Source: Candidatus Zhuqueibacterota bacterium
GTDB lineage: Bacteria; Zhuqueibacterota; Zhuqueibacteria; Thermofontimicrobiales; Thermofontimicrobiaceae
Direction of reading: 5' to 3'
Length of the DNA stretch: 64,000 bases
Assembly: GCA_034506395.1 (NCBI GenBank)
Contig: JAPDPQ010000002.1
Span: forward strand, 52,255 to 116,254
Both the position numbers and the translations under genes were made by a program. The notes under the pieces were generated by a model. It was not told where the DNA came from and did no database searches. It saw only the letters and a program-made list of their open reading frames with translations. Shown here piece by piece: positions 11,723-58,792 of this stretch. Within the stretch, counting starts at the first letter, position 1. Each line of letters begins with the position of its first letter.

Positions 11723-11734
11723 CGAGGAGCAATC

Positions 11735-12523: not shown

Positions 12524-12534
12524 TTGAGGAGATT

Positions 12535-20936: not shown

Positions 20937-20977
20937 GAGCCGCTCTATGTAAGATATGAGCGGCTTCTTTGTTTCTA
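20937..20977 (+). terminator. Rho-independent terminator after the 18097..20850 gene.
   Basis: The stem is 'AGAGCCGCTC'…'GAGCGGCT', with a ~12-nt loop, followed by 'TCTTTGTTTCT'. Confidence 0.5.
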
Positions 20978-26870: not shown

Positions 26871-29426
26871 TCACTCCTCTCTTAGCGCCTGTGCTGGCGA
26901 GGTGCGTGCCATTTTGAGAGCGGGGTAGATGCCCGCAAGCAACGCCGCAAAGATGGCCAGAAGCATGGCCTGAAGCAATAGTTGCGGCAAAATTTCGAAT
27001 TGGATGCTCCAACCAAAAGATCGCTCATTTACAACTTTAATGAGCACCATGGCGAGAATGTTTCCAATGGGCATGGCGATGAAACCGGCCATGAATCCCA
27101 TCATGCTGGTCTGCAAAATCACCATGAGCCAGAGTTGTCTGGGGGTGAGCCCAATGGCACGCAATACACCGAATTCTCGGGCTCGTTCCAAATGAATGGC
27201 CATGAGGGCACTGAGCACACCGATGAATGCGACGATAATCGCTAATCCTTGCAGGACGTTGGTGATCAAAAATGTCCGATCGAACACCTCGACCGAGATA
27301 TTCAAGAGCGAACGATTGGATTGGATGATAACCTCATCCTCAGGCTGAAGCAAAGAGCGAATCTGAGCGATCAGTCGGTCGATATCTGTGCCAGGAAATG
27401 CATAGACCAGAATCCCAGACAGCTGGTCGTCCTCCCAATATTTGCGATAAGTGTGATGGGCAATTGAAAAGAGCCCCTGATCTGTGCCGTAATCATAATA
27501 TATCCCAGCGATCTGAAATTTGTGTTCGCCCCGATCGGTGGGCAAAGCAAACCAGTCACCCACTTGAAGATGGTGTCGGTAAGCAAACGGTTCAGAAATA
27601 ATGGCTGCCTCCTCATTTTGATAAGCATTCCATACCTGCATTGGATCGCCAGCTTTGAAGCTGAAATTTCGATATCGATGGGCTCCTATTTTAGCGGTGA
27701 AAAGTACGATATTTCCATGTGATGTATTAATATGCCTCTCGCGGTAATAATTGACATATTGGACCTGGGGTAACTGGGCAATCTTGTCGCAGAGGATTGG
27801 GTCAAGATCGCCATATGCCTGGGTGGCGATGAGGCGCGGCGCGGCGATATAGATATCTGCTGATAAGATATGTTCTAGCCAATTGATCACAGTCGATCTG
27901 AAATTCTGGATCATCGTTCCTACCCCGATGGTAGTGGCGACTGCGATGCTGAGCGCGGCGAGGGCGACGGCAGTTCGGCTCATCTGGGAAATGATTGCTC
28001 TGAGAGATATGCGGCCGAAAAATCCCAGCAGCCTACCAAAAATTGGCGTAAAACCGCGCACCAACAGGATCATAATTGCAGGGGTGAGCAACGCCATCCC
28101 TAACACCAGAGGGACTATGCCGGCGTAGCTCAGCAAAACATGTCGGCTGGGGATAAATAGGATCGCCGATCCGATGGTGATGAATAAGATGGCCAGCCTG
28201 GTGAGGGTCGGGGTCTTTTTTTGCAATTGGGATTCTAAAGCCGACCGGCGCATGACCACATTCACTGGGGCTAAAGTTGCCTCGCGGGCGGGCTGAAGCG
28301 CTGCACCAAGCGTTGCGATGATCCCTAAGATTAGACCTTTGATGAGGCTCGAGATCGGCAGATCCACTGAAGTGACTGAGAGCACAAAATACAAGTCATT
28401 GATGCTCTGGGTGACCAATCGAACCATGCTGCGGCCCAGCACGACTCCAACGATCAAGCCCAACACTGTCCCAATCACTCCAACCAGAAATGCCTCGGCC
28501 AAGATCAGATGGAAGATCTCTTTACGTGTGACGCCGATGGAACGAATTAACCCAAGGTAGGTTCTTCGCTGCACGACCGAAAAGGTCATGGTATTGTAGA
28601 TCAGAAACGTTCCGACAATGAGGGCTAACAGACTTAGCGCGGTGAGATTCAGGTTGAAGGCGCTGACCATTTGGGTTGCCGTTTGTGTCCGAGTTTCTGA
28701 TGGCAGAATCTGGGCACCCAGCGGAAGAGCCCTGCTGATCTTTTTCAATACTGAATCCTGATCAACAATAAGCTCAATGCGGCTGAGCATTCCAGTCATG
28801 CCCAATAATTCCTGAGCAGTAGCGATATCAGATAAAATTAAGTTTTCCCAACTTTCTTGCTGGTGTTGATCTGCTGGGGTGACGACGCCAGAGATCACAG
28901 CCGATTTTTTTGCGCTGCCAACGCGGATCTGCAGCGTATCCCCTCTTTTCACTTTGAATTCCTTTGCTAACTGATCGGAAATCAACACTGCTCCAGAAGT
29001 CGTTAGCAATGAGATCAATTGGGTTTGCAATGGATTGGTGCCTAAGATAAAGTGGGGTCGAAAAGGGGGCTCGGCAAAGGGATCAATGCCAAGGAATCGC
29101 ATTGGCCGGGGAGGATTATTGCCGATGACAACAAATTGTTCAATAATGGGAGCAATTGGTCGAATTCTCAGATCGATTCTCAGCCGAGTGTAAAGTGTAT
29201 CAGGCAGTCCTATGCCGGCGGCGACGATTTGATGGGTTGCGTTGCCGGTAATTGTTTGCATCGAGATTTCGAAGGCACGTTTGGCGCTGCGGTTCGCCAC
29301 ATCGACCGAAACCACCACGGCAACACCGAGGATAATACCCACCACCGATAAAGCTACCTGCCAGGGATGACGAACATAATATCGCAGGCTGGAGCGCAAT
29401 AAAATGTTGTTATTAAGCGGATGCAT
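26871..29426 (-). CDS. ABC transporter permease of the FtsX/MacB family, a fused double-FtsX protein (851 aa) of YbbP/AttF-AttG type.
   Basis: Two repeats each comprise a large extracytoplasmic domain followed by a 4-TM FtsX domain. Hydrophobic helices cluster at ~aa 250-420 and 720-851. It sits adjacent to the ABC ATPase. Confidence 0.85.
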   Translation of the reverse strand: MHPLNNNILLRSSLRYYVRHPWQVALSVVGIILGVAVVVSVDVANRSAKRAFEISMQTITGNATHQIVAAGIGLPDTLYTRLRIDLRIRPIAPIIEQFVVIGNNPPRPMRFLGIDPFAEPPFRPHFILGTNPLQTQLISLLTTSGAVLISDQLAKEFKVKRGDTLQIRVGSAKKSAVISGVVTPADQHQQESWENLILSDIATAQELLGMTGMLSRIELIVDQDSVLKKISRALPLGAQILPSETRTQTATQMVSAFNLNLTALSLLALIVGTFLIYNTMTFSVVQRRTYLGLIRSIGVTRKEIFHLILAEAFLVGVIGTVLGLIVGVVLGRSMVRLVTQSINDLYFVLSVTSVDLPISSLIKGLILGIIATLGAALQPAREATLAPVNVVMRRSALESQLQKKTPTLTRLAILFITIGSAILFIPSRHVLLSYAGIVPLVLGMALLTPAIMILLVRGFTPIFGRLLGFFGRISLRAIISQMSRTAVALAALSIAVATTIGVGTMIQNFRSTVINWLEHILSADIYIAAPRLIATQAYGDLDPILCDKIAQLPQVQYVNYYRERHINTSHGNIVLFTAKIGAHRYRNFSFKAGDPMQVWNAYQNEEAAIISEPFAYRHHLQVGDWFALPTDRGEHKFQIAGIYYDYGTDQGLFSIAHHTYRKYWEDDQLSGILVYAFPGTDIDRLIAQIRSLLQPEDEVIIQSNRSLLNISVEVFDRTFLITNVLQGLAIIVAFIGVLSALMAIHLERAREFGVLRAIGLTPRQLWLMVILQTSMMGFMAGFIAMPIGNILAMVLIKVVNERSFGWSIQFEILPQLLLQAMLLAIFAALLAGIYPALKMARTSPAQALREE

Positions 29427-29510
29427 AACTATTAAAATGAACCAAGATGATTTTAAAGAAAAAACATTATATCGCTATAATGATCCTGCGCACAGATCCA
29501 TTTGCCAAGA

Positions 29511-30233
29511 CTAAGCGAACGACAAAGAAGGACTCTCCACCAGCTTGCCTTCTCGGATCGAAAAAATTCGATCGGCCATACCGATCAATTCGCGACTATG
29601 GGTTGCCATAATCAGAGTTTTTTGTTGCCGGCGCACCAATTTATCTAAAAGGGCGATCACCTGTGCGCCTGTTTCATAATCGAGATTGCCTGTGGGTTCA
29701 TCAGCTAAAATGATGTCAGGATCATGAATGAGCGCTCGGGCAATGGCGACGCGTTGTTGCTCGCCCCCGGAAAGGCGATCTGGATAGCTTTTTGCGCGAG
29801 CTGGCAAACCGACATCTTCCAGCATTGCAATTACCCGTTCCCTGGCCAATCGTCCATTTTGCCCGTTCAATTCCAATGGCAATAGCAAATTTTCTTCCAC
29901 GGTCAGCGTGGGGATCAAGTTGAAAAATTGAAAAATGAACCCAATATGTGCGCGTCGAAATAGCGTACGCTGTTGCTCGGGAAGTCGATTAAGGCTTTGA
30001 TTCCTCAAAATTACTTCCCCTGATGTGGGCAGATCGATCCCGCTGATCAAATTGAGCAGTGTGGATTTGCCAGATCCGCTTTTGCCGAGCAAGATGATCA
30101 ATTCCCCAGCTCGAATCGTGCAATTGACGTCATTGAGCACCGTTCGCTCGCAATCGACCTCGCGATAGATTTTGGTCAATTCTCGCAATTCAATGATACT
30201 GGATTCGAATGGCTGTTCTAAAAATCGTCGCAT
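29511..30233 (-). CDS. ABC transporter ATP-binding protein (LolD/MacB-type ATPase).
   Basis: Walker A is '[16 protein letters not shown]', the signature is '[15 protein letters not shown]' and Walker B is '[11 protein letters not shown]'. The start is set at the internal ATG of 'MRRFLEQ…' (30233); the ORF track extends to 30344. Confidence 0.85.
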
Positions 30234-30634
30234 AGTTCTCCTTTTCAGAATTAAAGATGGGAAAACGATCAGATACGATGAAAGTTCCCAATCCACCAGA
30301 ATGCTTAGGAAGGCTAAGGAATGGATATTGTATCTTGTGAACATATAGGAAGTAGTACCGAGCTAATCAACCAATTGGGTAGCAGATTGGATCTATCAAT
30401 GATTTTAAGAAGGAAAAGGATCAATCTGCGATTGGAGGCGAATAAAAGCTGCAAATGAGACAGAGAGGATTCTGCGGTTGTTGAATGAGCGCGGCAAATT
30501 ATTGAGTCATATTTGATGATTTCCCGCTTAAAATTCAGGTTGCCCAATGCGGGCCAAAGAAGGGAAACGGACAACCTGAATTCAATGTCGCGAGAAGAGC
30601 AGGAGCATGAAAATTCAATAATCGGACGCGATAC

Positions 30635-33458: not shown

Positions 33459-36400
33459 CTAATAGTTTTTTTCCAATATCATCATCTTATATTCATCCCG
33501 AAACCCCAGCCGTTTCAACAGGCCAGCGATCTCTGATGTCCTCACTGGTTGCCGGTCATAGAATTCGACTTTTATGGCGCGGATCCTGCGCCACCCTGCT
33601 GGATCATCCAATAATTGAGGGAGTAATGCAATAATAGTCTCCAAATCATTTGAAGACAGCTCCCGCAATGGGGTCAATTGTGCACCTTTAGATTCAATCG
33701 CCATTATTGGCAGACCAGCTTTGATGATCAAATAATTGTTTGGATGACGGAGCAATCGCCAATCTGGTTGCCGAGGATGGATGACGGGAAGGGGTGATGC
33801 TGCTCCATAGAGATTGGCTGGATCACAGCTATTGATTAAGATCGGGCGCTCGTCGCCTTCTATCTCGGCAGATGGCCTGTGAGTTAAGTATATGAGTGCA
33901 TCGGCAGCTTTCGGCAACGCGAACTGCAAGCCAGAAAAACTTTTGACGAAGTAGCCACGTCGGATTTCGCCGCGCCATTCTAATCGCACCAATGCCTCAT
34001 AAATTGACCGCCAAGGAATTGGCCAGCGCTCTAGATCATAAATCTCCCGGCAGATGAGACCATAACGTCGGAGGATCTGATTGATCAAAGCCTCAATTTG
34101 ATCCCCGGTCACGTTCTCGGGGCTCATCATTGCTGGCAATTGCCACCATCGGCCAGCACCAGGCAGCGGTCGATAGCGCTCATGGCGCCGATAATGACGA
34201 TAACTAAGTCTTATTCCAGTCGTTTCGATCACTTGTTCAAGTGAGTAAGTTGGTTTATCGGCACGGATAACGGCGAAGCTATCATTGCTGACTTCACCCC
34301 GCCAGATCAATTCCCAGAGACCCGCCGCACAAGCAGACGGCGGTAACCCGGTTGCTAACGATAGATCATTCACAAAGCATGCGCCTTGGGTCTGGAGCGC
34401 GCTTCGAAGTTTCTCAATCAATTCTTCTGCACTATTGTCCTTTGCCTGGGGAATTGCATCCTTAAATCGGTATCGAAAATACGAGAGATCGCTTCGAAAC
34501 GCAAATGCGATATCTCCCTTATTGCTTGTCGAAGAAGATGAGCCATACCAGGTGATCTCGCCTTGCCGACACAATTCATCCAGCCATGCGGGCTGATAAA
34601 CTTCCATTCTTTTGGCGAATATTTCTGTCTCCCAGAGCTCTGCTGGCAAGCGTAAACCTTGGAATTGTTCGATCAATTGCAACAGCCCTTGCAAACCAAA
34701 GCATTTTGTTTCTGGCGTTCGATGTTGCCAGCGCAATAGCCATTGCACATATTGGGTCACGTCGCAGGGTTGAACCTGGTGACGTTGCTGGCGCAACGTC
34801 AGGCGTCGTGCTTGTGCAACGGTTTCGCTTGTCGCCCATTGAAGCTGATCCTCAGATTCACCGATCTTCAGCGCAACATATTTTCCAGCTGCTTTTTGTT
34901 CCTCGAGCCACTGTTCCACCATCGGCCGATCGATTGGGTAACGGGCAACCATATCGGCGAGCGGGACTCCAGCATGATTGGCAACGTAGCGCTCAAGGAT
35001 CAACTTTTGGGCCTCAGCTTGAGGCCGGCTTTGAGACGCGATTTCTGCTGGTAAGATCTCATCGGATGGCAAGGATTCAAGTTCATCATCGCCCAATTTG
35101 AAATAAATTTTTTGGAAGCTCCTGGGGGAAGTCACAGGGGCATTTGGATCTGCGAAGGCTGACCGATATAAAGGGAAATCCTCTGGGGCGATCCACCGCC
35201 AATTTTGATGAACTCCGTCGATGAAGACGCAGAACGCTCGTCGCTCTGCCACTAAGGTTTGCATTAGCGATTTCGCATCCCCAGCAACTCGTTGTTCGAT
35301 CTCTTCTTCAGTTAAATCACCAATCCGATGGAGCAGATCGACCAGTTCACTTGCAGTCCTGGCGCGATAGCCATCGGCTCGACCTTGCATTCGCTGCTCG
35401 ATCTCATTGATGGCGTCTTGATGCAGTAGCAGATGCACCGCTTCAGATGATGTCAATTCTTCAATAAAGTCCTTCTCAACCGCGATGTCGCTGGTATCGC
35501 TTGGTTTCGGCTCATCGTATTCATACATGTAGCTGGCCATGAAGTCCAATAAGAGTGTTGCGGCAAATGGGGACGGCGTCGTAGCTGCACGGATCACAAA
35601 TTTGACTTCACCCGACTCGATGCGAGTGAGGAGTTCCTTCAGCTCATCCATTGCCAGAAAGTCCTGGAGCGATTCCCGATAGGTTTCCACAACAATTGGA
35701 AAATTGGGAAATTGATGAGCGACCTCTAACAGGTCCCGAGAGCGCATGCGCTGTAACCACAGCGGAGAGCGCTTTCCCGGTTTGGGCCGGGGGATGAGCA
35801 TCGCCCGATTGGCATTATGTCGAAATCGAATACCAAAAAAGGCGGAATCGGCCAACTCGGCAATCACTAAATCGGAGATGTTCTGGGGGGTAACGCTTTT
35901 GATGATCTCAATTGCGCGTTGGACGTGTTCGATGGGATAGCGAATCACAATTCCTCCGTCGGAGTGGAGCGATTCGGGTGCGATATTCAATCGCTTTTTA
36001 AACTGGGCGATTATAGCCAATTTCCAAGGCAGATGAACCCGGCCGCCATAAGGCGAGAGGATGACGATCCTCGGATCCCCCAATTCGTCCTGAAAACTCT
36101 CGATCAAAATGGTTCGATCATCTGGAATCACCCCTGCTATCTGTTTTTGATCCTTAAAATACTGATAAAGGTTACTGGCTGCCAGTTCATCCAGAGGGAA
36201 ATTCTCCATCAGCCATTTTAGGCAATGAGGATCTTCGAGCCGATCTGCCATTTCGCGACAAAATTGACCATACCTTCGGGACAAATGAGCCGAGCGATTC
36301 ATGAATTCGCCTCTCCAAAACGGCATTCGGGCCATAGCATCGCGAGCAGGGGCAACGAGAACTCGGTCATGGGTGATCTCTTTGATCCGCCATTGACTGC

Positions 36401-38048
36401 TTCCCAGCGCAATGACCTCGCCGACTCTTCGCTCGAACACGAATTCCTCCTCCAATTCTCCGAGCCGAGTCACGCCATCTTCCAGATAACAGCCGTATTG
36501 GCCTGTATCGGGAATTGCACCGCCGCCCAAAATCGCTGCCCGCTGTGTTCCCGGCAAAGCGTAAAGCATTCGATTCACCCGATCCCATGAAACGCGTGGC
36601 TTTAAGTCGCGAAATACCTCCGATGGATAGCGGCCGGAGACCATCTCCACCACGCTCAGAAAATGCGATTTCGGCAATGCTTGAAAAGGATAAGCCTGTC
36701 GAACCAGATCGTAAAGTTGATCTACTGACCAGGGCTTCATGGCGACCATGGCGATAATTTGCTGTGCTAAAATATCCAGGCAGTTTTTGGGAATTTTGAT
36801 TGGTGACACATCGGCTCGCAGCATAGCGCCGGCGATCACGGTCATTTCGAGCAGATCTGAGCGCATCTTGGGAATCAACCGACCTTTGCTTGCCATCTGA
36901 TATAGATGGCCGGCGCGTCCTACTCGCTGGAGAGCTCGAGCCACATCTTTTGGCGACTCCACCTGACAGACCAGATCGATGGCGCCCATATCGATCCCTA
37001 GCTCCAGGGTGGCAGTTGCTACCAGTGCGGTCAGCTTGCCCTGTTTGAGTTGCTCTTCAATTTCTCGGCGCATCTCCTTTGACACGCTGCCATGATGGGC
37101 TTTCACCAATTCAAACCCCGCCCGCTCATTTAGCGCTGCCGTCACCCGTTCTGCGGCCGCTCGATTATTGACAAAGATCAAAGTCGATCGATGCTTTTGG
37201 ATCAATTCCAGAAGCTTTTGATAAATTTCAGGCCAGATGGTATTCTCTGGAAGTTCTCGAAAATCTTCTACCGGGCTGATGATTTTTAAATCCAAGTTCT
37301 TTCGCATTCCAGCATCCACAATCGTGACTTGCCGAGGCTTCAAAATTGCCACCCCGTTCTGATACTCGAGATCATTCCCGACCAAAAAGCGGCCGATCTC
37401 ATCCAAAGGCTGCTGGGTTGCAGAGAGGCCAATCCGAACAAAAGGCTGCATTACGATATGCTGCAGTCGCTCTAATAGCAAAGCGAGAAAAGTGCCCCGC
37501 TTATTGTCCGAGATCGCATGAATCTCATCGACGATCACATATTTCACAGATCGAAGGATTCGCTGGGCGCGATGCGAGGTCAAAAGTAGATGCAACGATT
37601 CTGGGGTGGTAATTAATATGTGCGGCGGGAAACGCAAGGCCAACTCGCGCTCCTGCTGAGGAGTGTCTCCAGTTCGAACTGCTACTCGAATCTCTGGAAT
37701 GGTTGTTTTCAATTCCCTGGACTTTTCCTGAATTCCAGCCAAAGGCGATACCAAGTTTCTCTCGATATCATAATTGAGCGCTTTCAAAGGAGAGATATAC
37801 AGGGTATGCACACCCATCGGCGGTTCGTTGGAAAGCAGCTTTTTTAATAAGTCATCGATGCACACCAGAAAAGCCGCCAGTGTTTTGCCCGAGCCGGTTG
37901 GAGCTAAAATGAGCGTATTTTCGCCGCGGGAAATTGGTGGCCAACCCTGCATTTGAGGAGGGGTTGGTTCTCTAAATCGCTCATTAAACCATAGCTGGAT
38001 GATCGGATGAAAAAGCCCCAAAGAATTTTCTCCATTAAGCATAACCAA
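33459..38048 (-). CDS. lhr: Lhr-family large ATP-dependent DEAD/DEAH-box helicase (1529 aa).
   Basis: Motif I is 'LILAPTGSGKTLAAFL' and the DEAH box is 'VIVDEIHA'. A helicase C-domain follows, then the Lhr-specific WH/beta-barrel region and a long C-terminal extension. The size matches E. coli Lhr (~1540 aa). Confidence 0.85.
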   Translation of the reverse strand: MVMLNGENSLGLFHPIIQLWFNERFREPTPPQMQGWPPISRGENTLILAPTGSGKTLAAFLVCIDDLLKKLLSNEPPMGVHTLYISPLKALNYDIERNLVSPLAGIQEKSRELKTTIPEIRVAVRTGDTPQQERELALRFPPHILITTPESLHLLLTSHRAQRILRSVKYVIVDEIHAISDNKRGTFLALLLERLQHIVMQPFVRIGLSATQQPLDEIGRFLVGNDLEYQNGVAILKPRQVTIVDAGMRKNLDLKIISPVEDFRELPENTIWPEIYQKLLELIQKHRSTLIFVNNRAAAERVTAALNERAGFELVKAHHGSVSKEMRREIEEQLKQGKLTALVATATLELGIDMGAIDLVCQVESPKDVARALQRVGRAGHLYQMASKGRLIPKMRSDLLEMTVIAGAMLRADVSPIKIPKNCLDILAQQIIAMVAMKPWSVDQLYDLVRQAYPFQALPKSHFLSVVEMVSGRYPSEVFRDLKPRVSWDRVNRMLYALPGTQRAAILGGGAIPDTGQYGCYLEDGVTRLGELEEEFVFERRVGEVIALGSSQWRIKEITHDRVLVAPARDAMARMPFWRGEFMNRSAHLSRRYGQFCREMADRLEDPHCLKWLMENFPLDELAASNLYQYFKDQKQIAGVIPDDRTILIESFQDELGDPRIVILSPYGGRVHLPWKLAIIAQFKKRLNIAPESLHSDGGIVIRYPIEHVQRAIEIIKSVTPQNISDLVIAELADSAFFGIRFRHNANRAMLIPRPKPGKRSPLWLQRMRSRDLLEVAHQFPNFPIVVETYRESLQDFLAMDELKELLTRIESGEVKFVIRAATTPSPFAATLLLDFMASYMYEYDEPKPSDTSDIAVEKDFIEELTSSEAVHLLLHQDAINEIEQRMQGRADGYRARTASELVDLLHRIGDLTEEEIEQRVAGDAKSLMQTLVAERRAFCVFIDGVHQNWRWIAPEDFPLYRSAFADPNAPVTSPRSFQKIYFKLGDDELESLPSDEILPAEIASQSRPQAEAQKLILERYVANHAGVPLADMVARYPIDRPMVEQWLEEQKAAGKYVALKIGESEDQLQWATSETVAQARRLTLRQQRHQVQPCDVTQYVQWLLRWQHRTPETKCFGLQGLLQLIEQFQGLRLPAELWETEIFAKRMEVYQPAWLDELCRQGEITWYGSSSSTSNKGDIAFAFRSDLSYFRYRFKDAIPQAKDNSAEELIEKLRSALQTQGACFVNDLSLATGLPPSACAAGLWELIWRGEVSNDSFAVIRADKPTYSLEQVIETTGIRLSYRHYRRHERYRPLPGAGRWWQLPAMMSPENVTGDQIEALINQILRRYGLICREIYDLERWPIPWRSIYEALVRLEWRGEIRRGYFVKSFSGLQFALPKAADALIYLTHRPSAEIEGDERPILINSCDPANLYGAASPLPVIHPRQPDWRLLRHPNNYLIIKAGLPIMAIESKGAQLTPLRELSSNDLETIIALLPQLLDDPAGWRRIRAIKVEFYDRQPVRTSEIAGLLKRLGFRDEYKMMILEKNY

Positions 38049-40583: not shown

Positions 40584-41063
40584 CTAATCAGCTCGCATTG
40601 AATCAATATTCGATTTCGTTTGGATGAGTTGGCTCAGGCATCCCTCCAGGTATGCAATTACCAGAGGCAAATTATTTAACAAAAGGCGAAAGCCTTTTTG
40701 GGTCCAACCAGTATACTTTTCGCTTCGGATACATTCCCTCACATCCAACGAACCAATTTGGTTTTTCTCACTTGGTGGTATGATCCGAGCGATCAACTCA
40801 GTGGAGTTGTTTTTCGGTAGTCGACAGAGTTCTTGTTCCGCCGATGATTGTTGGATCGATCCTGCAGATCGGATCGCAACGAGCAATTGCTCGGCCAACT
40901 CATTGCTGAGCGTCACACCCTTTCGCGTATAACCTGCATATTTATCCGAAGTGACGTACTGTCGGATATTAATGTAGCTTTTGCCTTTATATTGGTTCAC
41001 TTCAAACCGCAATTCTGTTGTGCGGCTCAACGGGATTGAATTGAAATTCGTTTGTGACAGCAC
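40584..41063 (-). CDS. Hypothetical protein with two tandem PC4/YdbC-like (transcriptional coactivator p15-like, ssDNA-binding) domains.
   Basis: There is an internal duplication: 'KGKSYINIRQYVTSDKYAGYTRKGVTLSNELAEQLLVAI' aligns with 'IGSLDVRECIRSEKYTGWTQKGFRLLLNNLPLVIAYL'. The pattern (basic-G, …IR.Y…KY.G.T.KG..L) resembles PF02229-like domains. Confidence 0.4.
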   Translation of the reverse strand: MLSQTNFNSIPLSRTTELRFEVNQYKGKSYINIRQYVTSDKYAGYTRKGVTLSNELAEQLLVAIRSAGSIQQSSAEQELCRLPKNNSTELIARIIPPSEKNQIGSLDVRECIRSEKYTGWTQKGFRLLLNNLPLVIAYLEGCLSQLIQTKSNIDSMRAD

Positions 41064-50857: not shown

Positions 50858-51568
50858 TCATTGGGACATGTTCCAAATGATCACCGAGTCGAATAATTTC
50901 GATTCTCTTGCCTGACGCTGCAGTTGAATGGCTTCCGCGCGAGTCATCGGTCCACCGATGACGATCGAATACTGCGTTCGACTACCGAACGGTTCGTAGA
51001 CCTCGAATTTGAATTGATCGGTCTTTTTCGTCAATCTTTTCGCCTCATTCATCGCATCAGAGAGCTTGTCGTGTGAGCCGACAATCACAAAAAAGGTTCG
51101 TCGCGGGTTAATGCCCAACAAGCCGCGCCAGAATTGCTGGATTGGTGTTTCTTGGGGCAATGCAAAAGTTCTCAGCCGGAGCTCGATACGAGTGGTATCC
51201 TGAACTTGGGTGGTATCCTGGGATTGAGCATAGACCACCGAGCTGAACAATGGCAAGCCGATGGGATGATTCGCGGTCGCCGAGTGCCTTTGTGGGACAT
51301 CGATTTGTCCGGCATTGATGAGCGCGGTGATTAATGCCGGTGCAACAATGCCCAGTTCAAAGATTTTGACTGGGTTGTTCTCATCTTTATGGAGGAACGC
51401 TGTGATCCCGCCGAGATAGAACAAAATGAGCACGCGAATAGCATAGCCCAGCACGGCAAAAACGGTGAGTTTTACCAACAACACCTCCAAATCCACCACC
51501 AGTAAATTCATGATAATCGGTGTCAGCGCACCCAGCCCACCGATGAATATTTTCTTCCATGTTTTCAT
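50858..51568 (-). CDS. Membrane protein with a possible C-terminal SPOR-like (peptidoglycan-binding) domain.
   Basis: Three N-terminal TM helices are present. The C-terminal ~75 aa ('FFVIVGSHDKLSDAMNEAKRLTKKTDQFKFEVYE…YSIVIGGPMTRAEAIQLQRQARESKL') resembles the SPOR βαββαβ pattern. This assignment is weak. Confidence 0.4.
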   Translation of the reverse strand: MKTWKKIFIGGLGALTPIIMNLLVVDLEVLLVKLTVFAVLGYAIRVLILFYLGGITAFLHKDENNPVKIFELGIVAPALITALINAGQIDVPQRHSATANHPIGLPLFSSVVYAQSQDTTQVQDTTRIELRLRTFALPQETPIQQFWRGLLGINPRRTFFVIVGSHDKLSDAMNEAKRLTKKTDQFKFEVYEPFGSRTQYSIVIGGPMTRAEAIQLQRQARESKLFDSVIIWNMSQ

Positions 51569-52221
51569 TGACGCCTCTCCTCTTGGCAAAAATGAGCATC
51601 AGAATTAAAATCTGGCTGCTTGATGACCACAACTAGCGCAATAGATCCGATGATCAGGTACAAAAAAGCTGCATTACTGCTCCTACCCGGGATCAATTGT
51701 GCCTTCTCCTAACGTTACAAAGCATCGGCAAAATGTGAACCCTCCATCATTCCGAACCACGCCAGTTGTTGGAGGGAAATTTGGTTAATCAGCGATTCCG
51801 AAAAAGACGCCTTCTTCGATCTGTCGAATGACGGACAGATCCACTTGGAATGAACAGAATATATCGCTTTCACAAAAACATAATTTCGTACGGTGGGTTC
51901 GAGTTCAATATTTTATGCGGCAAGATACTAAATTTAGATCGATTTGTCAAGCTCAAATTTGGCTGCCTGAAATTTTGGTTGCTTCAAAGCACTATTGGCC
52001 GAAACGCAGTTCAATCTGTCTGGCTATTTCTCATTAGATTTCATTTTTGGGCGATAGCAATGATAGTTACAATCGAATTCGATGAATAATCCTCTGAGAA
52101 CGTTCAGGGACGCTTCATCTGTGAAAAAATTTAGAAGGAGTTGAATAGCGATCGCGCAAAGCAACTCTTGATGGAGCATTAATTCGATAAATTTTATAAG
52201 GAACCAGCTCCCAAGCGTTCA

Positions 52222-52914
52222 TTACTCTTCCACCACGTACTCGAACAATAAGCTTGCCATTACCAGAAAAATGATATCGAAACCGATCAGAATTCTGAGC
52301 CAGGATGCCGCGCCAGCTAAGCTCTCCTGATTGATTAGCGAACTGGTCGCTTTCACAGCGGCCAGCAGCACGGGGATTGCAATCGGAAATAGCAGAATGG
52401 GCAGCAGGATCTCCCTGGCGCGAGTATTGACCGAAATGGCAGAGAGCAAGGTTCCAACGGTAGCGAACCCCAGAGTGCCCAAAAGAATAATGGATAGGAG
52501 AGGGAGCAGAATGGCGAAAATATCAAGATTGAAAAGCACAATCATCAAAGGAAGCATGATCACTTCCATCAATACCATGAACAAGAAATTTCCGATCATC
52601 TTGCCCAAATAAAGCAGATAGTGGTCTACGGGACAAAGCAGCAGCCCCATCAAGCAGCCCTGGTCGACTTCGTAGATGAACGAGCGATTCAGGCCCAACA
52701 AGCCCGCGAAAGTGATGGCGACCCAGAGAATTCCAGGTACCATTTGTTTGACCACGGTACTTCCTGGTTCGAACATGAAATTGAAAATGACCACCACGAT
52801 CAAGCAAAAGATCAGCATTGATGAGATGGTTTCGCGACTTCGAAGCTCTGAGAGAATGTCCTTCCAGGCGATTGTGATCATGGGTGGCATCGTCATGCTT
52901 TTTGCTCCCTTCAA
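52222..52914 (-). CDS. ccmB: Heme exporter protein B (ABC permease CcmB).
   Basis: It is ~225 aa with 6 TM helices. It aligns with CcmB ('PGILWVAITFAGLLGLNRSF..E.DQGCLMGLLLCP'). It lies directly downstream of ccmA. Confidence 0.75.
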   Translation of the reverse strand: MKGAKSMTMPPMITIAWKDILSELRSRETISSMLIFCLIVVVIFNFMFEPGSTVVKQMVPGILWVAITFAGLLGLNRSFIYEVDQGCLMGLLLCPVDHYLLYLGKMIGNFLFMVLMEVIMLPLMIVLFNLDIFAILLPLLSIILLGTLGFATVGTLLSAISVNTRAREILLPILLFPIAIPVLLAAVKATSSLINQESLAGAASWLRILIGFDIIFLVMASLLFEYVVEE

Positions 52915-52970
52915 TCTATTGCAAGAACATGCGCAACAGGTAAAGAGTCATTTGGACCGTTTGCTGCATA

Positions 52971-53744
52971 TTAGGATGGCTCCTCTGTCAATCGGCGATA
53001 AAGGGATTTAAACGCCAATGGATCATATTCACGGGTAAGTCCTTGCCACACAAGCCTTCCTTTTGATAGGATGACGAAATGGCTGGCCAGTTTTAATCCC
53101 AAATCGAGATCATGAGTGGTCATGACGATCGTGCGATCGGGTGAGATTAATGAAGTGAATAAATCGACGAAATTTTCGATGGCACTTTGGTCCAGTCCAG
53201 TAAAAGGCTCATCCAATAAAATAATTTTGGGATCGGCAAGGAGGGCGCGACCGATGGAGAGACGCTGCTGCATGCCGCGGGAAAAGGTGCGAACCAGGTC
53301 GTGTCGGCGGGCCGAGAGACCAATAAGCTGGAGCGTCCTTTCGATCTGTCGTTGGGCATTGGGGAGGTGATACATCCTAGCGTAGAACCTCAAATTTTCC
53401 TCAGCAGTCAGATTGTTGTATAAAAAGCTTTGATGTCCAATAAATCCGATCTGCTGTCGAATAGCGAGCGGTTGGGTTTTAGCCGACTGTTGCGCCCCAG
53501 TGGTCTGGTTCTGATTTCTTGCCGCGGGACCATTTAACTGAGCCGCTGATCGAGAGGTTGTTTGGATGATTATCTCCCCTTGGGAGGGTTTCGCCAGGGT
53601 TGCGATGAGTTTAAGCAGGGTGGTCTTGCCAGCACCATTAGGTCCAATTATCATCCAATATTGCCCTGGCGTAATCTCAAGCGTAATATCTTTTAGGGCA
53701 ACGAACGAGCCGAACGATTTCGAGACTTCGTGGAGTGTGATCAT
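52971..53744 (-). CDS. ccmA: Heme exporter ATP-binding protein CcmA, carrying a low-complexity insertion.
   Basis: Walker A is 'GPNGAGKTTLLKLIA', the signature is 'FSRGMQQRLSIGRAL' and Walker B is 'ILLDEPFTGLD'. The start is the ATG of 'MITLHEV' (53744), which overlaps the upstream gene's stop (ATGA). A Q/T/A-rich ~45-aa insertion ('TTSRSAAQLNGPAARNQNQTTGAQQSAKTQPLAIRQQ') lies between Walker A and the Q-loop. Confidence 0.8.
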   Translation of the reverse strand: MITLHEVSKSFGSFVALKDITLEITPGQYWMIIGPNGAGKTTLLKLIATLAKPSQGEIIIQTTSRSAAQLNGPAARNQNQTTGAQQSAKTQPLAIRQQIGFIGHQSFLYNNLTAEENLRFYARMYHLPNAQRQIERTLQLIGLSARRHDLVRTFSRGMQQRLSIGRALLADPKIILLDEPFTGLDQSAIENFVDLFTSLISPDRTIVMTTHDLDLGLKLASHFVILSKGRLVWQGLTREYDPLAFKSLYRRLTEEPS

Positions 53745-54709
53745 GACTTGGCTTTTCTCATGGTATACACAAAACCGACCAGCAGCAAGGCAACGACAGC
53801 GATCAGCACCAACCATTGAATGGAGAACGAAAAATGCTTGATAGGAATATTCGTAAGAGTAAAATTGAGTTCCATCCCTGGCATGAGGTGGAATGCTGAA
53901 TACCGCTGATAGTTGATGCCGCGAATCGAGAATTCTCCCTGTTTCATGATCCCCGGACCTTGCAATACAAGCTCCGGGTTCGAGACAAAAATATTGATTC
54001 CCCCGCTTGGATAAATGACGGGGCGCGAAAAATTCCATTCCGATTTTCTGGTCGGCACTGAAAAACGGAACGAAAATTGGCGCGAGCCCGGCGACATCAG
54101 CTCAGTGTGATAGAGCTGATCCCCCTCGATTCGAACCACATTTTGAGCCTCTGGTGTCAGGATTTCCAGATCTTCGAACCCATCCGGCAAGGGAAATTGC
54201 AGCACGAAATGTTGCTCGGGCTGATCGAAATGTTCGCCAATAAACGTCTTATTCCCCACATTGTTCATGACGAAAATTTCGCGGAACAGCAGCTTGCCTG
54301 GCTCAGCGTCGATGAACAGATGCTCTAATTGTAAAACGATCTTTTCGGGACTCGAGGTCGTGTCATATACGATCACATTGCTTTGCGCCACGGGCGTGTC
54401 GGTTGTTAAACGCACCGCCTGGCCGTAGTAAACAATATCGACAAATGTGGAACGAGGATAATAAAGTAGGGTGCTATCGAGCTTCAAACCTTGAAATTCA
54501 AAATGACCTTTTGCATCGGTTTTTTGCATATACGACGAGTCATCAACGACGGTATGACCACGATTGACAAGTAGATTCACTTCCGCCCCAGCCACAATCG
54601 TACTATCGGCTGAGCCGTTATAAACGAAACCAGAAATTTTGCCAGTCTGGGCCAATATCGGCATTGAAAAGAAACTCATTGCTAAGAAAATCAAAACGAA
54701 ATATCTCAT
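53741..54709 (-). CDS. Hypothetical exported protein encoded inside the ccm operon. It has a signal peptide, a CarboxypepD_reg-like beta-sandwich, an unknown domain and a C-terminal TM anchor.
   Basis: The signal peptide is 'MRYFVLIFLAMSFFSMPILAQT'. 'GKISGFVYNGSADSTIVAGAEVNLLVNRG…TDAKGHFEFQGL' is CarbopepD_reg-like. The C-terminal hydrophobic helix is 'WLVLIAVVALLLVGFVYTM' followed by basic residues. The protein has no cysteines. It is translationally coupled to ccmA. Confidence 0.55.
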   Translation of the reverse strand: MRYFVLIFLAMSFFSMPILAQTGKISGFVYNGSADSTIVAGAEVNLLVNRGHTVVDDSSYMQKTDAKGHFEFQGLKLDSTLLYYPRSTFVDIVYYGQAVRLTTDTPVAQSNVIVYDTTSSPEKIVLQLEHLFIDAEPGKLLFREIFVMNNVGNKTFIGEHFDQPEQHFVLQFPLPDGFEDLEILTPEAQNVVRIEGDQLYHTELMSPGSRQFSFRFSVPTRKSEWNFSRPVIYPSGGINIFVSNPELVLQGPGIMKQGEFSIRGINYQRYSAFHLMPGMELNFTLTNIPIKHFSFSIQWLVLIAVVALLLVGFVYTMRKAKS

Positions 54710-54885
54710 TTTTCCCTTCCGTAATTAACGATCTATTCACTTTAAGATTAAAAAATGCCTTGATTGAATACTCGATCGATTGAGCAGCATCGCTTTTTAG
54801 CAACAATGGGCTTTAGTACCGTTTTTTATCATGACACATATGCTTGAAAGCGAAACCTCTGGTCCAGAACTTAAGACTCAACTTG

Positions 54886-56913
54886 TCACCGTCCTTTTTT
54901 ACTCTTGGATGACCTGGCATTTTTTGGTCGCTCCGATGATGGAGCTGCCGAATCCTTTTTTCGCGCTGCCTGGATCAGGATAATGGAAACGCCTATGACC
55001 ATAACAAAGCCTCCAATCCACATCCAAATCTGGAGCGGATTCACCAAAAATGTGAACGTGGCAGATCCATCATCCTGGTAGCTGGATAGAATGGCATAGA
55101 GGTCCTCTTTGAATGTCGAGCGAACCGCTACCTCCGTAGTATACTGGGTTTTACCCATGGCGGAATGATAGAAATTTCGCTGCGGCTTCAAAATCCCAAT
55201 TTTTTTGCTATCTTTGAAGACTTCTAATTCTGCAATAAGTATATCCTGGTTGGTCCGATGGCGTTCTCCCATCCCGGTATAAACCAGGCGGTAGCTGCCA
55301 ATGCCTGTCGCTTGGCCTTGTTGAAGGGTGATCTGCTTTTCCTGTTTGAAAGCGGTTGTGCCAACAATCGCCAAATAGATCAAAATAACTCCAACATGGA
55401 TCAAATAACCAGCATAGCGTCGCGTATTATGTTTTAAGGTTCGGAATAACGCAGGAATATAGCGCATTTTTTCTGATTTGACGCGATGACTTGCTGCACC
55501 GATGATTTCCGCGGCGATGATCGCCAGAGCAAGAAATGCGATCACTAGGGTGACCAACGCCCAAACATGATTGATCCCAGAAACATAGAGAATGATTCCA
55601 AATAACACCGATGTAGTGAAAGGATAAAGGCCTCGATTCAATAGGACTTGATTTGAGGTCTCACGCCACGATAAGATGGGGCAAATCGCCAGCAAAAACA
55701 ACAGCACGAGTCCAATAGGTTTGGCAATTCGATTGAAATAAGATTCGCCCAAGGCAACTTGCTTTCCGATGAACAACTCGGTAATAGCTGGGGCTAACGT
55801 GCCGATCAAGACCATAACCAATAGCACAATGAAGATGATGTTGAGGAGCAGAAAACTGGTCTCGCGGCTCAAAAGCGATTCATAGAAAGATTTGGAGCGC
55901 ATCTTGTTAATGCGGAACACCATCAAACCGATTGCTACCACCAAGATGATTAGCATGAATACGAGGAATAATGTGCCAAGATTGGATTGGCCAAAGGCAT
56001 GCACCGAGGAGATGATCCCGCTGCGCGTGATGAAAGTGCCCAGGATGGTCAGCAAAAAGGTGAGGATTGCCAGCGAAACGTTCCAACCGCGCATCAGATC
56101 CCGTGTCTTTTGCGCCATGATGGAATGGACCAGCGCCGTACCAGTGAGCCAGGGCAATAGAGAAGCGTTTTCCACTGGGTCCCAAGCCCAATAACCGCCC
56201 CATCCCAATTCCACATAGGCCCATTGCGCGCCCAAGAGATTGCCCACGGTCAATGCGATCCAGGCAAATAAGGTCCAATTTCGGCTACGATCCAGCCATA
56301 GATCGGAAACATCACCCTTGGCTAAAGCCGCTATTGCATAGGCAAAAGGAATTGTGAAACCGACGAAACCCAGAAAAAGCGATGGTGGGTGAAAAATCAT
56401 CTCCGGGTTCTGAAGCAACGGATTCAACCCCATGCCATCTGGCGGAACTGGGGACAATCGCTCGAATGGATTGGTGGCGTAGTTGACCAGAACGAGAAAG
56501 AAAAGGGTGACAAGATTGACAGTTGCCACCACATGATGTTTAAAAGGATCATCTTTGGTCCGATTCAGAAAAATATAGAGTGCGTTAAAAATCGTTAGCA
56601 GCCAGGTCCAGAACAGCAACGATCCTGACTGACCAGCATAAACTGCTGATAACGTGTATAACAATGGCAGGTGTCGATCCGAATAATCAGCGACGTATCG
56701 AAACGAGAAGTCGCGGCTGACAAAGGCATGAGCAAGGACAAAGATACTCAGGGTGATCAATATAAATTGACCGTAAACTGCCAGGTTCGCATTTTGGAGC
56801 CATGATTTTCGCTGTAATTTTATTCCCGAAACACCTGCCCAAATCGAATAGGCCGAGGCAATAAATGCAAGCAATAATAGGTAATGTCCCAATGACAATG
56901 TAATTCTCCTCAC
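54886..56913 (-). CDS. ccmF: Cytochrome c-type biogenesis protein CcmF (heme lyase / NrfE family).
   Basis: It is 675 aa and polytopic. The WWD motif is 'WGGYWAWDPVENASLLPWL'. The overall length and hydropathy are typical of CcmF. Confidence 0.9.
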   Translation of the reverse strand: MRRITLSLGHYLLLLAFIASAYSIWAGVSGIKLQRKSWLQNANLAVYGQFILITLSIFVLAHAFVSRDFSFRYVADYSDRHLPLLYTLSAVYAGQSGSLLFWTWLLTIFNALYIFLNRTKDDPFKHHVVATVNLVTLFFLVLVNYATNPFERLSPVPPDGMGLNPLLQNPEMIFHPPSLFLGFVGFTIPFAYAIAALAKGDVSDLWLDRSRNWTLFAWIALTVGNLLGAQWAYVELGWGGYWAWDPVENASLLPWLTGTALVHSIMAQKTRDLMRGWNVSLAILTFLLTILGTFITRSGIISSVHAFGQSNLGTLFLVFMLIILVVAIGLMVFRINKMRSKSFYESLLSRETSFLLLNIIFIVLLVMVLIGTLAPAITELFIGKQVALGESYFNRIAKPIGLVLLFLLAICPILSWRETSNQVLLNRGLYPFTTSVLFGIILYVSGINHVWALVTLVIAFLALAIIAAEIIGAASHRVKSEKMRYIPALFRTLKHNTRRYAGYLIHVGVILIYLAIVGTTAFKQEKQITLQQGQATGIGSYRLVYTGMGERHRTNQDILIAELEVFKDSKKIGILKPQRNFYHSAMGKTQYTTEVAVRSTFKEDLYAILSSYQDDGSATFTFLVNPLQIWMWIGGFVMVIGVSIILIQAARKKDSAAPSSERPKNARSSKSKKGR

Positions 56914-57053
56914 ATGATCTTAGAGTAATGCCGAACACGGAATGGAACAATTTGGATTTTAGGTTGTGAAGCATGAAAGAAAAATCAGGCAGTCGCGCAA
57001 TTGCTTCTCAGAAAGGAGCCTCCGCAGATATAAAATGCTATTTATCCGAGGAA

Positions 57054-57437
57054 TTACTCCCGCTTTGCCTCATATTTGGATGGGCATTTGGTCATGATCT
57101 GTGTGGCATTGAAGGTACCATTTTCATATTTGCCTTCCACAACCACCGATAGACCTTCTTGAAAGGTATCTGGGGCGACGCCCTTATGTTGAACGTTCAG
57201 CACTTTATTGCCGTCCGTCAGTTGAAAGCTGAGCAAAAGGCGCGGAGCATCCCACTGAATCGAGCCTGGAACCACCTCGCCGTTGATGCGCGTCCCTTTT
57301 CCCTCAAGCTGATGCGCTTGGGCAAAAAATTCATCAACGGTCAAGAAATAAACGGATGAATCCTTCATGCCCGACCAGAACAAATAAACAACAACGATCA
57401 ATATGATGAGTCCACCAATAAGCAATTTTTTATTCAT
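57054..57437 (-). CDS. ccmE: Cytochrome c-type biogenesis heme chaperone CcmE, of the variant CxxxY type.
   Basis: An N-terminal TM anchor is followed by an OB-fold ('GEVVPGSIQW…VQHKGVAPDTFQEG..VVVEGKY'). The C-terminal 'TKCPSKY' has Cys in place of the canonical heme-binding His of HxxxY. GGAGG lies upstream of the start. Confidence 0.85.
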   Translation of the reverse strand: MNKKLLIGGLIILIVVVYLFWSGMKDSSVYFLTVDEFFAQAHQLEGKGTRINGEVVPGSIQWDAPRLLLSFQLTDGNKVLNVQHKGVAPDTFQEGLSVVVEGKYENGTFNATQIMTKCPSKYEAKRE

Positions 57438-57523: not shown

Positions 57524-58792
57524 TCACTTAATGATATCCGTGCCCATGAACTCTCTCAGCACCCGAGGAACGATGACTGTACCCTCGTCGGTTTGATAAT
57601 TTTCTAAGATGGCGATCACCGTTCTCGGCAATGCAAGTCCAGATCCATTGAGCGTATGGACATATTCGGGCTTGGCATTGGCATCGCGCTTGAATCGGAT
57701 ATTGGCGCGTCGAGCTTGGAAATCCTCAAAATTGCTGCAAGATGACACTTCCAGCCACTTGCCGAGACCATCAGCCCAGACTTCGATGTCATAGCATTTA
57801 GCAGCCGCAAAGCTCAGATCTCCAGTCGAAAGAGCCATGACACGATATGGCAACTCCAAGAGTTGCAAGACTTCCTCAGCATTTTGAAGCAACTTTTCCA
57901 ATTCATCGTAAGAACTTTCTGGCGTGACAAATTTCACCATTTCGACCTTATCAAATTGATGCACCCGCACCAGTCCACGAGTATCTTTGCCATAGGTCCC
58001 TGCTTCGCGACGAAAGCAAGGGGTATAGGCGGTATAATATATTGGCAGGTCCTCGCCTCGAAGGATTTGATCGCGCAACAAATTCGTCACTGGCACTTCA
58101 GCCGTGGGGATAAGAAACAAATCGTCTTGCGAGGTGACGTACATGTCATCTTCGAGCTTGGGAAGCTGCCCGGTGCCGAACATGCTTTCGCGATTCACCA
58201 AAAACGGTGGATATACTTCGGTATAACCATGTTTTTTGATATGAAGATCAAGCATAAAATGGATCAGCGCGCGCTGCAACCGGGCCCCCAGACCTTTATA
58301 GTTAATGAAAAACGAGCCGGCGACGCGAGACCCTCCTGCAAAATCGATGATCCCCAGCTTCTCGCCGATCTCCCAATGCGGTTTTGCTTTGAAATCCTTA
58401 GGAGGCAGTTCGCCCCAGCGTTTGACCTCTAAATTTGCTGAAGCATCCTGACCAATCGGGACCGATTCATGGGGAATGTTAGGGATGCGGATTAGGATGT
58501 CATAGATCTGCTGGTCGAGGGTTTTCACCCGATCGTCCATTTGTTTGATCCGATCTGCCACGGATTTCATTTGACTAATCAGATGACTGGCATCCTGTCG
58601 TTGCTGTTTCAAACGACCGATCTCCTCAGAGACCTGATTTCGTTCATGTTTTAGCGCTTCGACTTCAGTCAGAATCTGCCGTCGCTCCCCATCCAATTGC
58701 AACAGGCGATCGATATCTGCATGATCATTTTTTAGCTGAATGGCTTGTTTGACGCGATCGACATTGTTGCGAATAAACTTGATGTCTAACAT
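57524..58792 (-). CDS. serS: Serine--tRNA ligase.
   Basis: The N-terminal coiled-coil is '[22 protein letters not shown]…'. The class-II catalytic core is present ('[26 protein letters not shown]', '[28 protein letters not shown]'). The length is 422 aa. Confidence 0.9.

Follow-up and report, generated by a model that had tools for sequence, protein, structure and literature searches.

Gene content of the ccm locus

The window analysed in this study is a 64-kb stretch (64,000 nucleotides) of the Candidatus Zhuqueibacterota bacterium assembly GCA_034506395.1 (contig JAPDPQ010000002.1, positions 52,255 to 116,254 of the forward strand), and our subject is a cluster of cytochrome c maturation (ccm) genes at window positions 52222-57437. 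Five genes lie there on the minus strand in the order ccmE-ccmF-X-ccmA-ccmB, where X denotes an unnamed ccm-linked protein. This is the arrangement set out in an original prediction made from the sequence alone; all five genes were found where that prediction had placed them, with Pfam support for each except the unknown open reading frame (ORF). The first gene, ccmE (57054-57437; PF03100), encodes a membrane-anchored heme chaperone of 127 residues that is of the Cys type, and alignment with E. coli CcmE places its CPSKY heme-binding motif, Cys118 to Tyr122, at 57072-57086. It is followed by ccmF (54886-56913; PF01578 and PF16327), encoding a heme lyase of the WWD type with 675 residues from a GTG start, whose WWD motif was located at 56179-56202 by a six-frame motif scan of the window. 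Protein X (53741-54709, 322 residues) combines a signal peptide with three beta-sandwich domains and a transmembrane helix at the C-terminus; it contains no cysteine. The last two genes encode an ATP-binding cassette (ABC) transporter: the ATPase CcmA (52971-53744, 257 residues; PF00005, TIGR01189) and the permease CcmB (52222-52914; PF03379), the latter with 230 residues from a TTG start, or 224 according to gene callers.

Upstream of ccmE is serS (57524-58792, minus strand; PF00587 and PF02403), a neighbour outside the Ccm system. On the other side, ccmB is followed by a 630-bp noncoding gap (51590-52221) that is AT-richer than the cluster (GC content 0.41 versus 0.467), contains no conserved ORF and corresponds to the slot occupied by ccmC-ccmD in other lineages; beyond it lies the gene for a SPOR-domain protein (50858-51589, minus strand). 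Small ORFs in the gap, including one of 43 codons with a single hydrophobic stretch, are unconserved in other loci of KSB1, as the Zhuqueibacterota are also called. Scans for promoters and terminators across the cluster showed nothing beyond shuffled expectation that was useful for defining operon limits, and Rfam returned zero family matches in the window. A good sigma-70-like site (TTGACA-17-TATCTT, 51950-51922, minus strand) is present in the gap and may be what drives the SPOR-domain gene.

The lack of ccmC, ccmD, CcmG and CcmH from the window had also been predicted, and it was borne out by motif, hidden Markov model (HMM), phmmer and small-ORF checks. In the window, the six-frame scan for WWD motifs returned CcmF alone and no second WWD protein, a CcmC HMM and phmmer searches with seven CcmC queries gave zero matches, phmmer with four CcmH queries likewise gave zero, and no thioredoxin-like protein was found. 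There is no conserved small CcmD-like transmembrane ORF in or beside the cluster. In the 630-bp gap after ccmB, tblastn revealed no collinear or significant ccmC remnant, and the idea of a pseudogene there was rejected. For comparison, we collected 46 related loci, designated below by L numbers, some of them through a metagenome scan with a KSB1-only alignment of X (a multi-phylum alignment was too divergent for that scan), and annotated them with one query set. The cluster is an ordinary one except for its apparently unlinked ccmC and the widespread unnamed membrane protein that accompanies ccmF.

The cysteine motif of CcmE

CcmE matches PF03100 with an E value of 3e-29 (101.6 bits against a cut-off of 24.6), and a hydrophobic N-terminal anchor is visible in its sequence. 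Pairwise HMMER comparisons gave E values of 4.5e-11 with E. coli CcmE and 3.9e-7 with D. vulgaris CcmE (2KCT), and the alignment with canonical CcmE spans residues 42 to 122, the oligonucleotide/oligosaccharide-binding (OB) fold region. Within it, the segment AKHDENY of both E. coli CcmE (8CE8_E, 1SR3_A) and Shewanella CcmE (1J6Q) is matched by TKCPSKY, which pairwise HMMER also places over the TKCP of the D. vulgaris protein. Thus, Cys118 occupies the position of the heme-binding His130 and Tyr122 that of Tyr134 (E. coli numbering), and the predicted replacement of the HxxxY histidine by cysteine holds in an alignment of CcmE C-termini. The prediction also had the protein ending in TKCPSKY; the motif is real, but it is not terminal, as the protein ends in ...IMTKCPSKYEAKRE, with five residues (EAKRE) after the tyrosine. 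KCPSKY is present in 85 of 88 database CcmE homologues, and two of the remaining three are truncated or have a longer tail; one homologue, a KSB1 entry at NCBI, is 100% identical to the window protein. The motif is therefore a fixed trait of a large clade and not a chance or private substitution.

On the basis of its CxxxY motif, the cluster had been assigned to a variant System I. This agrees with System I*, in which cysteine replaces the heme-binding histidine and tyrosine lies four residues downstream; System I* is the Cys-CcmE variant of Allen 2006, Goddard 2010 and Stevens 2011, the first two as cited in PMC3601427 and PMC9084895. CPSKY was the majority Cys-CcmE motif in a 2011 review of System I, occurring in 25 of 36 genomes (PMC3601427), and that review was the sole match in a phrase search of the available papers for CPSKY and CcmD_alt. 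The thioether-linked heme that the prediction ascribed to this form of CcmE is contested, with reports split between covalent and noncovalent binding: heme on Cys-CcmE is reported as covalent in D. desulfuricans and as noncovalent, via the cysteine, in D. vulgaris (PMC3884852), and heme attachment to M. acetivorans CcmE is Cys-dependent (PMC9084895).

The further proposal that CxxxY goes with a lack of CcmH was not supported as argued, as the motif does not imply that absence. Lack of CcmH was the original 2006 criterion of System I*, but the 2011 review withdrew it as a defining one, noting that about one-third of Cys-CcmE bacteria have CcmH and that its absence "is not a characteristic feature" (PMC3601427). 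Gemmatimonadota, Latescibacterota and two unassigned metagenome lineages contributed loci in which ccmF and a Pfam-valid CcmH come directly after a KCPSKY CcmE. These CcmH genes adjoin KCPSKY-CcmE/ccmF in L015-L018, L020 and L022 (at approximately 12,370-12,970 in each), in L006 (12414-12899) and in L039 (3394-3945), and the three that were scored (L006, L015, L022) reached 62-71 bits against the PF03918 cut-off of 25. They carry CLCGDC (CQCGC in L006) for the canonical LRCxxC, with further cysteine pairs downstream, and may form a distinct subtype that goes with Cys-CcmE. In KSB1, no CcmH was found within 10 kb of any cluster. A published KEGG Orthology (KO) table lists ccmH = 0 for KSB1 bacterium 4484_87, the nearest tabulated relative, and 1-3 copies in other KSB1 clades (PMC9012183). 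The zero agrees with what the prediction supposed for this lineage.

CcmF, CcmA and CcmB

CcmF is a full-length orthologue of Thermus CcmF (6ZMQ), which it matches with an E value of 1.8e-99 over residues 37-656. Both of its Pfam domains are strongly supported (PF01578, E 1e-39; PF16327, E 1.5e-52), and gene callers begin the protein at an ATG 15 nt downstream of the GTG, giving 670 residues. The WWD motif WGGYWAWDPVENAS is identical in the Thermus protein. All of the histidine-containing motifs are kept, namely HPP, TALVH, SVHAF and IHVGV, which we take to correspond to E. coli H173, H261, H303 and H491.

CcmA scored 133.4 bits against NCBIfam TIGR01189 (cut-off 131.6) and matches Pfam ABC_tran. 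The 355-aa ORF listed for it is too long at its 5' end; translation truly begins with the ATG at 53744, and a direct reading shows that this codon overlaps the stop codon of X as ATGA. Because of this overlap, X and ccmA are translationally coupled. CcmA also contains a 23-residue insertion rich in Q, N, T and A (…SAAQLNGPAARNQNQTTGAQQSAKTQP…, approximately 53480-53550, minus strand) between the Walker A region and the Q-loop. This insertion is specific to the sublineage and is missing in the aligned CcmA of L003, L004, L028, L042, L005 and L008. In the KO table, ccmA is uncalled in all 11 clade II KSB1 metagenome-assembled genomes (MAGs), although ccmB and ccmC are called (PMC9012183). CcmB matches PF03379 with an E value of 3.7e-39 (134.8 bits).

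Cluster layout in related lineages

The order ccmE-ccmF-X-ccmA-ccmB is complete in 20 KSB1 loci, the window included, and recurs in six more that are fragments; wherever the flank was captured, serS lies directly upstream of ccmE. Longer versions occur elsewhere. Five Gemmatimonadota-type loci and a Latescibacterota chromosome have the order ccmE(KCPSKY)-ccmF-ccmH-ZnR-X-ccmA-ccmB-ccmC, where ZnR is a gene of approximately 160 codons that lies between ccmH and X in these relatives and is absent from KSB1 clusters, and in L022 a 53-aa CcmD-like ORF follows ccmC. In L042, multiheme cytochromes precede ccmE(KCPSKY)-F-X-A-B-C-D; L047 has the order ccmF-X-A-B-C; and in L006 and L039 the order is ccmE-F-H-ZnR-X, ccmABC being absent from the vicinity. 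KSB1 thus carries a shortened form of a widespread layout, ccmE-F-(H-CcmI-N-like)-X-A-B-C-D, from which the KSB1 locus has lost ccmC-ccmD at one end and ccmH-ZnR in the middle.

In one KSB1 sublineage, ccmB is directly followed by a gene for a 640-aa lipoprotein (L037, 12603-14522; L012, 5642-7561; L038, 7844-9763) that has tetratricopeptide repeats (TPRs) and, at its C-terminus, a thioredoxin/AhpC-TSA domain (WCGPC). This protein, which resembles a CcmI-like and a CcmG-like factor in one, has no homologue in the window.

A probably unlinked ccmC

The absence of ccmC and ccmD had been read as part of the variant system. It does not belong to the variant, CcmC being needed in every System I that has been studied, the archaeal one included (PMC9084895), and it appears instead to be a matter of gene order. 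No ccmC was found within the 10 kb fetched on either side of approximately 20 KSB1 clusters, but ccmC (K02195) is recorded in 38 of 44 KSB1 MAGs, where it tracks ccmB (Table S7 of the PeerJ KSB1 study, PMC9012183). For KSB1 bacterium 4484_87 (GCA_002085355.1), the table gives ccmC = 1, ccmB = 1, ccmA = 1 and ccmH = 0 (PMC9012183), and the locus from this same genome (L044) has the order serS-ccmE-F-X-A-B with no ccmC within 10 kb. At least one KSB1 genome with this cluster thus has an annotated ccmC that is not linked to it. Terms for ccm are absent from the supplements of the Zhuqueibacterota paper.

Three residues of E. coli CcmE have been shown to contact CcmC, D101 and E105 among them (PMC6204919), and the alignment shows Asp and Glu retained at these two positions, so the window CcmE probably still docks on CcmC. 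In relatives, a CcmD of 44-53 residues follows ccmC (L005, PF20077; L022; L042), and ccmD probably travels with the unlinked ccmC.

Sequence and predicted fold of protein X

The gene between ccmF and ccmA had been treated as an unknown filler, and yet X proved to be the most informative part of the cluster. It matches no Pfam or NCBIfam family above threshold, and its sole family match is a weak, sub-threshold one to CarboxypepD_reg at the N-terminus. A word-indexed search retrieved 43 homologues, all of them KSB1-like, and local phmmer found homologues in the same slot in other phyla. An exhaustive HMM search of 1.84 billion cluster representatives (50% clusters) returned 3,315 matches at E <=1e-3 and 1,654 at E <=1e-10, mostly of 370-410 residues and aligned end to end. 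The homologues in other phyla found by phmmer and the HMM search rule out X as a KSB1-specific invention. Within KSB1, X is the faster-evolving protein, with identities of 45-89% versus 63-100% for CcmE. A role as a thiol-redox substitute for CcmG/CcmH is also ruled out, because the window X is free of cysteine, as are 50 of 149 family representatives.

Five residues are near-invariant among 151 family members: His130 (98%), Asn150 (97%), Glu144 (95%), Tyr94 (95%) and Thr118 (93%). The conservation of these polar residues in many lineages suggests a defined ligand-binding or catalytic site and not a scaffold. A site formed by His130, Glu144, Asn150 and Tyr94 could handle heme, for example by taking heme off the CcmE cysteine.

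An AlphaFold2 model of X (predicted local distance difference test score 90.4) is all-beta outside two terminal helices. The best PDB match by two methods is Ost1/ribophorin I, and other fold matches include pilins, aminopeptidase N-domains and transthyretin-like modules. Ost1/ribophorin I is a noncatalytic subunit that has beta-sandwich domains in the lumen and crosses the membrane with one helix, and its presumed task is to offer unfolded substrate to a polytopic enzyme of the membrane. However, it shares only 10-13% sequence identity with X and belongs to a different pathway in a different domain of life, making it a fold analogue only; at this identity, and with template-modeling (TM) scores of 0.35-0.38, common ancestry of the two proteins cannot be claimed. 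Other copies of X have a cytoplasmic tail of approximately 60 residues, which is missing in the KSB1 and L042 copies, whose clusters are also without ccmH and ZnR.

Gene neighbourhood of protein X

In every KSB1-type locus, the 20 complete ones and the 6 fragments alike, the slot between ccmF and ccmA is taken by X. More broadly, it is downstream of ccmF in every family member whose neighbourhood was examined, and it stands beside ccmF in at least four phylum-level groups. When representatives of the X family were picked blind to ccm, all five (L040, L041, L042, L043, L047) proved to lie downstream of ccmF, with a CcmI-N-like gene intervening in L040, ccmH in L041 and no gene in the other three. 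In L006, L039, L040, L041 and L043, X occurs with ccmF/ccmH and there is no ccmAB nearby; X is therefore tied to the ligation module over the ABC module.

The ZnR or CcmI-N-like gene occurs at 12896-13432 in L006, 12927-13384 in L022, 3933-4421 in L039 and 390-737 in L040, and it is fused in two proteins, P0337 and P0264. ZnR has one N-terminal transmembrane helix ending in a PLF/PLLR-like motif, then a coiled coil and usually a C-terminal zinc ribbon. TIGR03142, the CcmI N-terminal domain, is the best match in six of the seven ZnR-type sequences scanned, at a sub-threshold 17-24 bits (cut-off 29.3). In P0337 and P0264, the CcmI-N-terminal-like module is fused to X, and P0337 lies directly after ccmH; their sole NCBIfam match at E <=0.01 is TIGR03142, with 21-24 bits and so under the same cut-off. 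Read from the sequences, the topology of both proteins is a transmembrane helix, a cytoplasmic coiled coil, a second transmembrane helix and a periplasmic domain. This presumably resembles the topology of CcmI, with beta-sandwiches where CcmI has TPR repeats. X gave no TPR match in Pfam and NCBIfam scans.

Interpretation and alternatives

Taken as a whole, we consider it probable that the region encodes the core of a System I* pathway in KSB1/Zhuqueibacterota, with an unlinked ccmC and with X belonging to the CcmF ligation module. By analogy with studied systems, the unlinked CcmC, probably with a small CcmD, would bind heme in its WWD domain and load it onto Cys118 of CcmE, with Tyr122 as a likely ligand of the heme iron. 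ATP hydrolysis by CcmA2B2 would then release holo-CcmE, which would dock on CcmF, where the WWD domain and histidine ligands would position the heme and CcmF would form the thioether between heme and the CXXCH of Sec-exported apocytochromes. From its synteny, fusions and fold, X may be a membrane-anchored periplasmic subunit of the CcmF module that, instead of a CcmI TPR domain, holds unfolded apocytochrome, holo-CcmE or both at CcmF.

The components of this proposal for X differ in strength. The odds somewhat favor X being a real Ccm component of some kind. That it acts at CcmF as a chaperone like CcmI, forming the periplasmic working part of a CcmI analogue without TPRs, is a tentative proposal based on synteny, fusions and fold, to which we give a little less than an even chance. 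More tentative still is the idea that X founds an undescribed and widespread Ccm component, a CcmF-module subunit that stands in for the CcmI TPR domain and goes together with Cys-CcmE.

A number of observations weigh against the overall interpretation. The window is without any c-type cytochrome gene, and a six-frame scan found CXXCH in no window ORF of at least 100 aa. KSB1 nevertheless has clients for a Ccm pathway, because coxABC and aa3-type cytochrome c oxidase genes are reported in several orders (Zhuqueibacterota study). The data from the source genome are those of the 64-kb window, in which no ccmC, ccmD, ccmG, ccmH or ccdA sequence was seen, and the case for ccmC in KSB1 depends on KEGG assignments published for other KSB1 MAGs. 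A CcmC profile search with an eight-CcmC alignment gave no KSB1-named match in the best 120 of 5,559 matches, a result that says nothing either way because only those best 120 were listed. As for X, it has no sequence similarity to TPR CcmI, its fold matches are generic beta-sandwiches with low TM-scores, all of the CcmI-N-like matches fall under the curated cut-off, and its coupling to ccmA could equally mean that it works with the ABC module. Finally, the co-occurrence of X with Cys-CcmE comes from a biased sample, because the loci were found with Cys-CcmE or X queries; L039 and L042 are the only independent tests of that link.

One alternative is that KSB1 truly lacks CcmC, and that CcmF, perhaps with X, takes heme from the cell and loads Cys-CcmE in a System I of four or five proteins. 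This would account for the absence of ccmC from the 64-kb window and from within 10 kb in approximately 20 KSB1 loci, and in lineages with the same layout (L042, L047, L015-L022) ccmC-ccmD directly follows ccmB, so that the absence from the KSB1 cluster is a real local loss. The lack of a KSB1-named sequence among the best 120 of 5,559 CcmC matches points in the same direction, but, as noted, that silence means nothing. Moreover, the KO table has ccmC in 38 of 44 KSB1 MAGs, tracking ccmB and including the genome of L044 (PMC9012183), the window CcmE keeps two of the three CcmC-contact residues, and CcmAB has no known role in the absence of CcmC. We regard a true loss of CcmC as highly improbable, and a functional System I* module with ccmC elsewhere in the genome as very likely.

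For X, the question is which partner it serves, if any. It could act with the release module of CcmAB and the unlinked CcmC, helping to release or receive holo-CcmE or replacing CcmD. The overlap of its stop codon with the ccmA start fits such a role, as do the same tight junction in L003, L028 and L042, the position of X always upstream of ccmA where ccmAB is in the cluster, and the lack of a detected ccmD in the KSB1 cluster. However, X follows ccmF, ccmH or a CcmI-N-like gene in five loci where ccmAB is not nearby (L006, L039, L040, L041, L043), a normal small CcmD follows ccmC in the X-bearing L022 and L042, and the fusions of X are to a CcmI-like N-terminus, with none to an ABC component. 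A role in the ABC module thus appears unlikely. Less likely again is that X is a passenger, a generic beta-sandwich protein of the cell envelope that sits in the operon without any role in cytochrome c maturation. Its lack of a family annotation, of cysteine and of a recognizable catalytic motif would be expected of such a protein, as would fold matches to pilins, aminopeptidase N-domains and transthyretin-like modules and a faster evolution than that of CcmE within KSB1 (45-89% versus 63-100% identity). Yet a passenger would hardly keep its adjacency to ccmF in at least four phylum-level groups and in five of five independently sampled members, be translationally coupled to ccmA through ATGA, be fused to a CcmI-like module beside ccmH, and retain near-invariant His, Glu, Asn and Tyr in 151 sequences. 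We favor a place for X in the CcmF ligation module.

Relation to known systems

System I* has been known since 2006, and the KSB1 cluster is a further member of it; what may be new is the X family. Like the System I* of Desulfovibrio (D. desulfuricans CcmABCDEF and CcmI; D. vulgaris CcmE, 2KCT), the cluster has CcmF, CcmA, CcmB and the TKCP motif, and no gene for CcmG/CcmH lies within it (PMC3601427, PMC3884852). Cytochrome c biogenesis in Desulfovibrio depends on ccmC and ccmD (PMC9084895). The KSB1 cluster differs in that ccmC and ccmD are not found in the 64-kb window and in that a beta-sandwich protein, X, with no TPR, lies between ccmF and ccmA; its host also belongs to a different phylum. 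In Desulfovibrio, ccmC and ccmD probably lie inside the ccm operon, and its CcmI is presumably a TPR protein, although it may instead be a relative of X.

The cluster shares with archaeal Ccm (Methanosarcina acetivorans CcmABCEF) a CXXXY CcmE, the cysteine of which is needed for heme attachment in M. acetivorans, as well as the absence of CcmH/CcmI from the locus and the dispersal of ccm genes outside a single operon (PMC9084895). M. acetivorans is without CcmD (PMC9084895), whereas CcmD, and often CcmH, is found in relatives of the window cluster. The window further differs in having one full-length CcmF plus X. The CcmF of Methanosarcina acetivorans is, we believe, split.

Compared with canonical System I (E. 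coli CcmABCDEFGH; 8CE8, 1SR3; Thermus 6ZMQ), the CcmE, CcmF, CcmA and CcmB families are the same, and CcmF has an almost identical WWD domain to that of Thermus and keeps the four histidine motifs. In contrast, Cys118 stands for His130, the locus is without ccmC, ccmD, ccmG and ccmH, and the order is E-F-X-A-B and not A-B-C-D-E-F-G-H. A canonical cluster among our loci (L008, with HSNEY) has no X. The likeness to CcmI/CycH, the CcmFHI subunit that acts as apocytochrome c chaperone, lies in the position of X beside ccmF/ccmH and in the relatives that add a CcmI-N-like module to a large periplasmic domain. Unlike CcmI/CycH, the periplasmic part of X consists of three beta-sandwich domains and not of TPRs, there is an extra C-terminal transmembrane helix, and the window X has no CcmI-like N-terminal module.

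KSB1/Zhuqueibacterota, a phylum of the Fibrobacteres-Chlorobi-Bacteroidetes (FCB) group with no cultured member, adds one phylum to the range of System I*, which is of modest value and unsurprising. In related phyla, the same KCPSKY CcmE is found both together with CcmH and in its absence, and the natural series E-F-H-ZnR-X-A-B-C-D, E-F-X-A-B-C-D and E-F-X-A-B could reveal what CcmH and CcmI contribute. If X is a true subunit, models of System I* ligation without CcmH and TPR-CcmI miss a part, and heterologous reconstitutions that omit X could under-perform. Breaking the heme bond to the CcmE cysteine is a chemical puzzle of System I*, and the conserved site of X could bear on it, if that site is as proposed.

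Other genes in the window

Several genes away from the ccm cluster deserve mention. Six large secreted proteins of 816-917 residues are encoded at 6368-23829 on the plus strand, in a run interrupted by an unannotated 262-aa ORF (11735-12523). Three have FG-GAP repeats and three have Cohesin domains, one of the six also having a Dockerin; FlgD_ig-type C-termini are common to all six, and sorting-tail models of the type IX secretion system also match the 917-aa protein (18097-20850). The run looks like a cell-surface or cellulosome-like paralogue array. Ahead of it lie genes for a 1,413-aa Big_1/invasin-like protein (57-4298, plus strand) and a B12-binding radical SAM enzyme (4409-5974).

A CrtC-like protein (24723-25928, minus strand) has two lipocalin domains, PF07143 and PF17186, of the hydroxyneurosporene synthase family, and its gene adjoins a MacB-type ABC transporter (26871-30344). 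Finally, a 159-aa protein encoded at 40584-41063 on the minus strand matches the PC4 (transcriptional coactivator p15) single-stranded DNA-binding domain (E 3.8e-10), and its gene lies near those for an Lhr-type large helicase (33459-38048), a PHP-domain protein and a metallophosphoesterase.

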